From a virus (taxonomy: Duplodnaviria > Heunggongvirae > Uroviricota > Caudoviricetes): 64,000 nucleotides of DNA. Made by a program: the position numbers and the translations under genes. The stretch lies in IMG/VR virus record IMGVR_UViG_2875703104_000004. One strand, 5' to 3'. Below are positions 63,144 to 64,000 of the stretch, piece by piece. The number at the start of each line of letters is the position of its first letter. Position 1 is the stretch's first letter. Below the pieces are notes generated by a model. It saw only the letters and a list, made by a program, of their open reading frames with translations, was not told the origin of the DNA and made no database searches.

Positions 63144-63416
63144 TCATCTCCGGGGATGTTGGGGTCTCAGGCACACTGATCGGCCCCCCGTGTTGTTTCC
63201 GGGTACTGTTTTTGATTTATGCAACAAAGTATTGCAGCGTCGAATATGAGCTATGGCCAGATTTTTGTTAATCGTGGTTGTTGCAACATGTAAGGCGAAT
63301 GACCACACTATTCTGGCACGCTCGTAATCACGCTGAAATTCCGCTTCCTGTGCTGCCGTGAAGAGTTCCGACCAGGACATACGGCGAAGTGTATGTCTGT
63401 CAGTAATATCCGTCAT
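63144..63416 (-). CDS. hypothetical protein, third gene of an overlapping three-gene unit
   Basis: 90-aa ORF; ATG overlaps the stop of the upstream gene (ATGA); AGGAGG-like sequence upstream; no family recognised. Confidence 0.45.
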   Translation of the reverse strand: MTDITDRHTLRRMSWSELFTAAQEAEFQRDYERARIVWSFALHVATTTINKNLAIAHIRRCNTLLHKSKTVPGNNTGGRSVCLRPQHPRR

Positions 63417-63628
63417 GAGCTCTCAGCTTCCTCCTTCGTATTTCCGTCAGAAACACAAACGCCCCGCAGAGAAAATTCGCCAACATTCTCCTTTTTAATG
63501 GCGTGCAATGCATCGCGACAGGCCCGTTCGGTATGAAATGCCTGGCTGTGCACCGCCAGTGTGGGCTGCCGGGCATCACCGGAAGAGACATTAAAGGGAG
63601 ATGAAAGCCAGAAAATCAGTAGCCACAT
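63413..63628 (-). CDS. hypothetical small protein with hydrophobic N-terminus
   Basis: 71-aa ORF MWLLIFWLSSPFNVSSG.. with two Cys; starts 3 nt after the stop of the upstream gene. Confidence 0.4.
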   Translation of the reverse strand: MWLLIFWLSSPFNVSSGDARQPTLAVHSQAFHTERACRDALHAIKKENVGEFSLRGVCVSDGNTKEEAESS

Positions 63629-63631
63629 GCG

Positions 63632-64000
63632 TCACACCTCGTCCTTTTTATGCGGGTATCTGGCCAGAATATTGAGCGCCTGTAATGGAGCTTCATGCAT
63701 TTCACGGATACAACGGGCATCGGTGATGTTTTCCCTGTAATGCGTGGTTTCCAGCATCATATGATGCATATGCAGCATCCGGGCCAGGGCTGCACGGAGT
63801 TCTTCAATATGTTGTTCATGGGAATGCTGACGGGGTGGTATCCGGCAGAGAGGGATAACCTCCACATCATCCGGGTGCGCGCGAAGCCACGCGTCAGTGA
63901 CTGTAATGTCGTCAGTGTAAAACCATGTGCCGGATGTCCCGTTGGCCAGAAAACGCATTTTCCAGGCTTCTGGGGTGGCGGTTGTGTTGTTATCTTTCAT
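63632..64000 (-). CDS. hypothetical protein, C-terminal 122 codons (5' end beyond window)
   Basis: Open minus-strand frame running to the window edge; His-rich segment HSHEQHIEELRAALARMLHMHHMM; no family recognised. Confidence 0.45.
   Translation of the reverse strand: MKDNNTTATPEAWKMRFLANGTSGTWFYTDDITVTDAWLRAHPDDVEVIPLCRIPPRQHSHEQHIEELRAALARMLHMHHMMLETTHYRENITDARCIREMHEAPLQALNILARYPHKKDEV

Follow-up and report, generated by a model that had tools for sequence, protein, structure and literature searches.

The DNA treated here is a stretch of 64,000 nucleotides from a virus record in IMG/VR (Caudoviricetes; IMGVR_UViG_2875703104_000004), and this whole stretch is referred to as the window. 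Its last 857 bases carry three open reading frames (ORFs) on the minus strand, which belong to an operon captured from a conjugative plasmid and of which the third appears to encode a diverged relative of the ANR regulators of enteric pathogens:

63632..64000, minus strand: g1, 122 amino acids, His-rich (10 His), two Cys; annotated as WP_001521284.1 in Escherichia coli CE10
63413..63628, minus strand: g2, 71 amino acids, hydrophobic N-terminal segment and two Cys; starts 3 nucleotides after the g1 stop
63144..63416, minus strand: g3, 90 amino acids, ANR-like; start codon (ATG) shared in part with the stop of g2 (ATGA)

A sequence-only reading of the window had described these genes as a head-to-tail array with a 3-nucleotide gap and an ATGA overlap, encoding a His-rich protein, a 71-residue protein with a hydrophobic N-terminus and two Cys, and a 90-residue protein. 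ORFs and translations agree with this description, the junctions being TGA-CGC-ATG between g1 and g2 and a 4-nucleotide ATGA overlap between g2 and g3. The 5′ end of g1, however, does not lie beyond the window as had been supposed. The chromosome of E. coli CE10 matches window positions 59994-64000 at 99.7%, and the g1 start annotated there is the ATG at window base 64000. [quoted passage not shown]

Extension past base 64000, advised in the same reading for recovery of a complete first gene, is not needed for g1 but does reveal more of the operon. The three ORFs are the distal members of a five-gene operon, orfA-orfB-g1-g2-g3. The 63-amino-acid orfB, upstream of g1 and outside the window, ends with a stop codon that overlaps (ATGA) an alternative g1 ATG situated 15 nucleotides before the annotated start; orfA (80 amino acids, annotated as WP_001296383.1) also lies outside the window, with the upstream region alongside. 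The earlier picture of a single compact operon beside mobile-element debris is thus upheld, and translational coupling of its genes is probable. A scan for promoters and terminators gave no signal above shuffle expectation. At the start of orfB, a 24-codon ORF, MTTKFLRLYPTDEKDKNSHRASSQ, overlaps it in another frame (CE10 locus 14764-14838) and is kept in all three copies aligned, either as a possible leader peptide or by chance.

All five genes are protein-coding and under purifying selection, as judged from the ratios of nonsynonymous to synonymous substitution rates (dN/dS; Nei-Gojobori, calculated pairwise between diverged alleles), which range from 0.06 to 0.33. The values amount to 0.13-0.14 for g1, 0.06-0.08 for g2, 0.14 for orfB, and 0.22 for orfA. 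The fastest-evolving of the five is g3 (0.31-0.33), for which synonymous sites are saturated in the most distant pair (pN/pS 0.47). Moreover, g1, g2, and g3 are annotated coding sequences in every chromosomal RefSeq row sampled, including those of ATCC 25922, sequence type 131 (ST131), and O6:K2:H1 strains.

None of the three proteins had been matched to a family in the sequence-only reading, but g2 and g3 match PHROG families, and g3 is further hit by the NCBIfam model ANR_neg_reg (NF033650). Against this model, with a curated cut-off of 32 bits, the g3 allele in the window scores 25.3 bits (E 1e-5) and three other alleles 20.6, 28.3, and 30.7 bits, the E-values of the four ranging from 3e-4 to 2e-7; bona fide members run as controls reach 65.7 bits (Aar), 72.7 bits (a phage ANR), and 51.1 and 66.9 bits (two others). 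When nine g3 alleles were compared by hhalign with nine RefSeq-annotated ANR proteins, including Aar of enteroaggregative E. coli (EAEC) 042, the two sets were aligned over 54 columns with a probability of 91.9% and an E-value of 7.1e-7. The alignment takes in almost the entire ANR domain (58 of 68 template columns) and defines the following part of g3:

63219..63380, minus strand: ANR-homologous core of g3 (codons 13-66, the columns aligned by hhalign)

Within this core, g3 keeps the motif A..AE...DY..A...W..A of helices 1 and 2, represented by A22, E26, D30-Y31, A34, W38, and A41, and its C61 aligns with the conserved cysteine that follows helix 3 in ANR proteins. Conserved residues of helices 1 and 2 in the ANR family are A14, E18, A26, W30, and A33 in Aar numbering (PMC4983702), and the conserved cysteine has likewise been described for the family (PMC4038620). 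The AlphaFold2 model of g3 consists of three helices (residues 15-27, 31-48, and 51-69), followed by a tail predicted with a local distance difference score (pLDDT) below 50 after residue 70. The conserved three-helix core comprises residues 13-69, whereas the tail (residues 70-90) is variable, disordered, and overlaps the remnant of a convergent gene. Since only the first ~69 residues are conserved, the length of g3 alleles varies from 74 to 108 amino acids. ANR proteins are described as smaller than 10 kDa with three alpha-helices, a size that fits the ~69-residue core of g3; the allele in the window amounts to 10.5 kDa because of its disordered, non-conserved tail. Given the profile-profile alignment and the preserved helix 1-2 motif and cysteine on the one hand, and the sub-threshold scores and an altered third helix on the other, g3 is best regarded as a remote ANR homologue in a distinct clade that stands outside the family by its curated definition.

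Other searches with g3 were less informative. In PHROGs it matches phrog_2227, and Foldseek against the PDB returned nothing at E<=0.001 but a likeness to generic MIT/TPR-like helical units. A sequence search of solved structures gave chance matches only (E>0.5), among them the neurotensin receptor, and such a chance match accounts for the spurious name 'neurotensin receptor R8' that g3 bears in RefSeq where it is not simply called hypothetical. With respect to earlier literature, extraintestinal pathogenic E. coli (ExPEC) F11 was listed among ANR carriers by Santiago et al. 2014 (PMC4038620). The ANR meant there is most likely not g3, as F11 has a canonical prophage ANR at another locus. An 'anr' gene has also been reported on IncF/ColV contigs beside tsh (PMC11357031); it is plausible that the 'anr' of VirulenceFinder surveys corresponds to g3.

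The DNA that carries these genes is a captured piece of the backbone of an I-complex (IncK/B/O/Z-type) conjugative plasmid, as follows from its identity to plasmids, its gene order, and the confinement of the homology to 1.73 kb between transposase remnants. By blastn, CE10 locus positions 14310-16039 are 93.7% identical to positions 8908-10645 of plasmid pSH15sh99, and in the chromosome the plasmid homology is restricted to this interval, with transposase remnants on both sides; it ends at CE10 locus position 16039, corresponding to window position 62962. In CE10, the fragment has kps/iha on one side and sat/iutA-iuc on the other, all within an ExPEC pathogenicity island. Two features are thereby delimited in the window:

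62962..64000, no strand assigned: in-window part of the 1.73-kb I-complex plasmid backbone fragment, of which ~690 bp more, carrying orfB, orfA, and the upstream region, lie beyond base 64000
62962..63215 (approximate), plus strand: frameshifted 3′ remnant of a convergent ECs1377-family winged-helix gene, with indels in the alignment; cut off by an IS110-family remnant

The operon DNA has counterparts of 92-96% identity in 367 plasmid records (358 conjugative), which derive from Escherichia, Shigella, Klebsiella, Salmonella, and Citrobacter. All three plasmids that were typed carry IncK2/Z replicons; two possess MOBP/MPF_I transfer genes and one is an IncF multireplicon. On the plasmids, the genes are arranged in the order traY - excA - (TnsA-like) - Hok/Gef - orfA - orfB - g1 - g2 - g3 - convergent ECs1377-family winged-helix gene - nuc - dqlB - trbABC - nikB. 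The operon of I-complex plasmids hence occupies a position between pnd and nuc/trbABC, on the nikB side of the origin of transfer (oriT).

The convergent neighbour is intact on plasmids, where it matches NF052300 with 297.6 bits as well as PF14090 (HTH_39). There, the 3′ end of g3 overlaps that of the ECs1377-family gene by ~50 nucleotides (window 63144-63215; plasmid locus L002 10385-10435). Because of this overlap, the annotation pipeline PGAP misses g3 in most plasmid records and annotates it only if the convergent gene is disrupted. Of 5426 complete E. coli genomes, 2792 contain matches to ECs1377-family genes with a DNA identity of 60-80%; most of these reside in chromosomal islands, and most are called 'hypothetical'. 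The idea that such a gene is the constant partner of g3 was rejected, the family being widespread and its O157 copy (locus L113 3952-4575), which has a DUF4222 gene nearby, being devoid of an ANR-like neighbour. In an Rfam scan, isrC, an Hfq-binding small RNA outside the module, was the only match: full-length with 145 bits at CE10 locus 13681-13803 (minus strand), it lies ~1.2 kb past window base 64000, inside an IS3-family insertion sequence (IS) element upstream of the plasmid-derived fragment.

The 857-bp stretch is present in 993 of the complete E. coli genomes (5426 in all), where it occupies 801 sites on chromosomes and 259 on plasmids. The chromosomal copies sampled each contain three intact coding sequences. 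A common chromosomal variant, exemplified by ST131 strain 751, is 9 bp shorter (848 vs 857 bp) and 98.7% identical, and is likewise annotated with all three. The arrangement is conserved elsewhere: the same order was found on other replicons at 49-84% amino acid identity. On STEC plasmids, a diverged orfB-g1-g2-g3 lies ~0.5 kb downstream of espP, with amino acid identities of 66% for g1, 84% for g2, and 49% for g3, and gaps of 9 and 27 nucleotides replace the overlaps. A further diverged module, in which IS66 interrupts g3, resides on an IncF plasmid. In chromosomal islands (L007-type), the diverged module is located downstream of a 1289-amino-acid SPATE (serine protease autotransporter of Enterobacteriaceae; Peptidase_S6); here frameshifts have hit orfB and g2, but g1 and g3 persist, g3 being intact. 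In islands of the CE10 type, sat is 4 kb away from the module (CE10 locus 15001-23967, window about 55000-64000), and an L-lactate permease fragment flanks the module in both CE10 and the STEC plasmid (82.7% identity). The recurrence of SPATE neighbours on unrelated replicons, together with this common permease fragment, suggests that the island segment may descend from a SPATE virulence plasmid.

The genes also occur apart. A lone g1 homologue stands beside a glucoamylase-like gene, near a putative prophage Q-antiterminator-like ORF, and homologues of g2 are found without g1 or g3 in Salmonella, where a DUF2913 gene follows, and on an IncFII plasmid of Citrobacter beside ccdAB. Some I-complex plasmids have g1 and g2 genes identical to those of other plasmids, yet carry as g3 a 74-amino-acid allele with only 66% identity over a 68-codon core, a discrepancy that would imply a recombination breakpoint inside the operon. 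The same plasmids (loci L015-L018 5001-7700) carry a PF00884 sulfatase-family gene (475-514 amino acids) and a DUF2569 gene exactly between g3 and the ECs1377-family gene. Since g1, g2, and g3 are encountered separately or in other combinations, the operon genes behave as shuffled accessory genes and not as an obligate multi-subunit system.

Three of the five operon genes—orfB, g2, and g3—match PHROG families of unknown function, namely phrog_1226 (E 1e-16) in the case of orfB and phrog_3766 (E 1.5e-10) in the case of g2. The N-terminus of g2, MWLLIFWLSSPFNVSS, is hydrophobic and lacks a basic n-region, and its two cysteines are invariant in three aligned alleles; homologues exist in E. coli, Salmonella, and Citrobacter. 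In Pfam, neither g2 nor g3 had a significant match. An IMG/VR phage contig contains, head to tail, an orfB homologue, a 65-amino-acid ORF, a canonical ANR (the phage control of 72.7 bits), and a g2 homologue (59% identical), the array lying between a family-A DNA polymerase gene and a VRR-NUC-like gene. Likewise, an orfB homologue is positioned directly upstream of the canonical ANR in the prophage of uropathogenic E. coli (UPEC) F11. Of 80 related phage loci that encode a canonical ANR, 16 have an orfB homologue no more than 600 nucleotides from it, and 1 has a g2 homologue at such a distance.

For g1, scans of Pfam, NCBIfam, PHROGs, and PADLOC yielded no family, and Foldseek against BFVD returned nothing at E<=0.001. 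The AlphaFold2 model is of low confidence (pLDDT 61), and g1 is described here as an N-terminal beta-beta-alpha-beta unit followed by a C-terminal two-helix domain (about residues 62-115). All full-length relatives with an organism name are from E. coli; one more comes from an IMG/VR contig. An exhaustive profile search revealed that the last ~50 residues are common to the C-termini of >60 mosaic proteins of 60-300 amino acids, with the consensus AL.RML.MH..MM.K.N.GASFYDAECIREMNEAPIQA. Other parts of these mosaic proteins match PHROGs of unknown function in four of the nine tested, and a Mu-like prophage encodes one such protein with a g1-type C-terminus in its semi-essential early region. The occurrence of homologues of orfB, g2, and the g1 C-terminus in such regions, and of orfB and g2 beside ANR, indicates that the operon genes probably stem from a reservoir of small genes of phage early regions, where a protein of the ANR type recurs as a neighbour. 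Deposited phage genomes themselves gave no blastn match to the operon and no tblastn match to g1 or g3 (50,697 genomes), and profile scans of GTDB representative genomes and of IMG/VR found no relative of g3.

What might such an operon do? Aar attaches to AggR and other AraC/XylS proteins at the dimerisation region; it also binds H-NS directly and modulates silencing (PMC4983702, PMC5570504). Rnr, ~25% identical to Aar, regulates hundreds of genes in enteropathogenic E. coli (EPEC) (PMC10148876). Our favoured interpretation, to which we give about an even chance of being correct, is that the operon constitutes an accessory regulatory cassette of I-complex plasmid origin in which g3, as a diverged member of the ANR superfamily, acts by protein binding. 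The operon is native to the I-complex backbone, between the pnd (Hok/Gef) locus and nuc/trbABC, and a 1.73-kb copy has been captured between IS elements in the ExPEC pathogenicity island. By analogy with Aar and Rnr, the three-helix protein of ~8 kDa encoded by g3 most likely does not bind DNA; instead, its target would be another regulator, either an activator of the AraC/XylS type or a protein of the H-NS family, and this binding would retune transcription of the element or of the host. The partner may differ from that of ANR proteins, because no AraC/XylS gene is annotated nearby and helix 3 has been rebuilt, and an H-NS-family protein is considered most plausible. The products of g1 and g2 would be co-translated partners, g1 a soluble two-domain protein and g2, on account of its hydrophobic N-terminus and two invariant cysteines, probably a membrane-anchored or exported mini-protein that may be disulfide-bonded.

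Several observations weigh against this interpretation. Every g3 allele stays under the curated ANR cut-off (20.6-30.7 vs 32 bits), and hhalign of g3 against Aar alone gives a probability of only 9.8%. In helix 3, the residues W45, R49, and F52 (Aar numbering), which are invariant in the ANR set, are replaced in g3 by L53, H57, and R60, L53 being invariant across the aligned g3 alleles; Santiago et al. counted W43 and R47 of the consensus among seven conserved residues and found that mutation of W45 abolishes Aar activity (PMC4983702). In the five annotated contexts examined (the ExPEC island, I-complex plasmids, the STEC plasmid, and the IncF plasmid), the annotation shows no AraC/XylS gene within 5-15 kb of the module. 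The F11 prophage ANR likewise has no AraC/XylS neighbour, so that such a partnership is not universal among ANR proteins. Neither g1 nor g2 has any functional relative, and fold searches were uninformative. As to the phage neighbourhoods, the 80 loci are close relatives, so the 16 co-occurrences of orfB and ANR are not independent events, and g2 adjoins ANR at a single locus. Finally, the chromosomal copies sampled are nearly identical (98.4-100%), and recent spread, instead of selection in the chromosome, may be the reason why they are intact.

An alternative explanation, which we consider unlikely, is that the operon serves counter-defence or host takeover, its small phage-type proteins inhibiting host defence or nucleoid proteins on entry in the manner of the small early proteins of Mu, lambda, and T7. 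The presence of the g1 C-terminal domain in an early-region protein of a Mu-like prophage speaks for it, as do the variable phage slot between DNA polymerase and VRR-NUC genes that houses homologues of orfB, ANR, and g2, and the small size and fast shuffling of all these accessory genes; the binding of ANR proteins to H-NS, if applicable here, would moreover overlap with anti-silencing. However, no family known for anti-restriction or anti-defence is matched in Pfam, NCBIfam, PHROGs, or PADLOC, and the deposited phage genomes lack matches to g1 and g3. Scans of g1, g2, g3, orfA, and orfB against Pfam, NCBIfam, and PADLOC found no toxin, antitoxin, anti-restriction, or defence family, ANR being the only family hit, and PADLOC-DB 2.0 yielded no family for any of the five proteins with E values of up to 1. 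The location of the operon on the nikB/trbABC side of oriT would also be unfavourable to this explanation, since in IncI1 plasmids this side is the last to enter the recipient and not the leading region in which anti-defence genes cluster.

It is likewise improbable that the chromosomal fragment is a passenger relic, functional on plasmids and merely carried along with iha, sat, and iuc without contributing anything, an explanation that is compatible with a function of the operon on plasmids. The fragment measures only 1.73 kb, is bordered by IS debris, and adjoins a convergent gene that is both truncated and frameshifted; the diverged island copies have frameshifts in orfB and g2, and the near-identity of the chromosomal copies means that selection is not measurable among them. 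On the other hand, the three ORFs are intact in every chromosomal row sampled, from many lineages (in CE10 orfA and orfB as well), while the adjacent gene has decayed, and g3 is intact even beside decayed neighbours.

The class suggested by the sequence-only reading—toxin-antitoxin, antirestriction, or small defence system—is not supported, the genes being separable and g3 being related to ANR proteins. A toxin-antitoxin, abortive-infection, or other small defence system is very unlikely, for although compact coupled small genes on mobile DNA and the immediate vicinity of addiction loci on the source plasmids would suit it, the genuine toxin genes there (Hok/Gef pnd and the DinQ-like dqlB) flank the operon without being part of it, no toxin, antitoxin, or PADLOC family is matched, g3 belongs to a regulator superfamily, and the obligate co-occurrence of partners typical of type II systems is contradicted by g1 alone, by g2 alone or with other partners, and by the L007-type islands, which have lost g2 and orfB to frameshifts but keep g1 and g3, a loss that an addiction pair would tolerate in neither direction.

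The regulatory interpretation can be carried further, although this extended form is rather improbable. The g3 family would then be a sister clade of ANR with a rebuilt third helix and another partner, such as an H-NS/Hha-type silencer or the convergent ECs1377-family protein, and would form with orfB, g1, and g2 a phage-derived anti-silencing or regulatory cassette by which I-complex plasmids and SPATE/aerobactin islands set their own expression. If this were true, the cassette would serve roughly a fifth of the complete E. coli genomes surveyed. Carriers of the module include ST131, ATCC 25922, the neonatal-meningitis strain CE10, and hundreds of I-complex plasmid records; its genes are nonetheless annotated as hypothetical or under the spurious 'neurotensin receptor' label. 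Should g3 act like Aar or Rnr, which reprogramme hundreds of genes via AraC-family and H-NS proteins, an unrecognised regulator of virulence or plasmid functions would be travelling with sat, iha, aerobactin, and espP. Should it act otherwise, the gain is that a candidate toxin-antitoxin or defence locus is removed from consideration and the fragment is recognised as plasmid backbone in a pathogenicity island.

Further features of the window do not involve the operon. Positions 58000-60170 contain two tandem lom-like outer-membrane genes, along with an N-terminal portion of a lambda-type side tail-fibre gene. N bases are scattered through the second copy (59120-59291), which continues into an IS30 fragment, and the window diverges from CE10 below position 59994; the tandem arrangement could be a real duplication or an assembly collapse. 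Over positions 1-64000, there are 69 N in 28 runs, and 20046 G stand against 15434 C, a strong G>C skew on the plus strand throughout.

In kind, the locus is ordinary, being plasmid backbone debris in a pathogenicity island with small phage-type accessory genes; what sets it apart is an ANR-like, diverged, and unannotated clade, very widespread both in ExPEC and among plasmids that belong to the I-complex or bear SPATE genes. Its closest counterpart as DNA is the excA-pnd-...-nuc-trbABC segment of the I-complex (IncI1/K/B/O/Z) backbone, to which the fragment in the window is 92-96% identical with the same gene order. Unlike that segment, the chromosomal copy comprises only 1.73 kb, with a truncated ECs1377-family gene and without pnd and nuc on its flanks. 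The variable small-gene slots of temperate phage early regions, such as the Mu semi-essential region and the F11-type slot between DNA polymerase and VRR-NUC, offer a second comparison: they bring homologues of orfB, g2, and ANR side by side and harbor the g1 C-terminal domain in a Mu-like early-region protein. Here, in contrast, the genes belong to a conjugative plasmid backbone and to chromosomal islands instead of a phage, and the full-length g1 architecture is known from named sources only in E. coli, plus the one IMG/VR contig. With the ANR family, comprising Aar of EAEC 042, Cnr of enterotoxigenic E. coli (ETEC), and Rnr of Citrobacter rodentium and EPEC, g3 shares a small three-helix fold without a DNA-binding motif, the helix 1-2 motif and the cysteine after helix 3, profile homology across the whole domain, and carriage on plasmids, prophages, and virulence islands. 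It departs from the family in its sub-threshold score, its substituted helix-3 invariants, and a variable tail of 5-40 residues. Whereas canonical ANR genes stand alone, g3 is the last gene of a coupled operon and has no AraC/XylS gene annotated near it.

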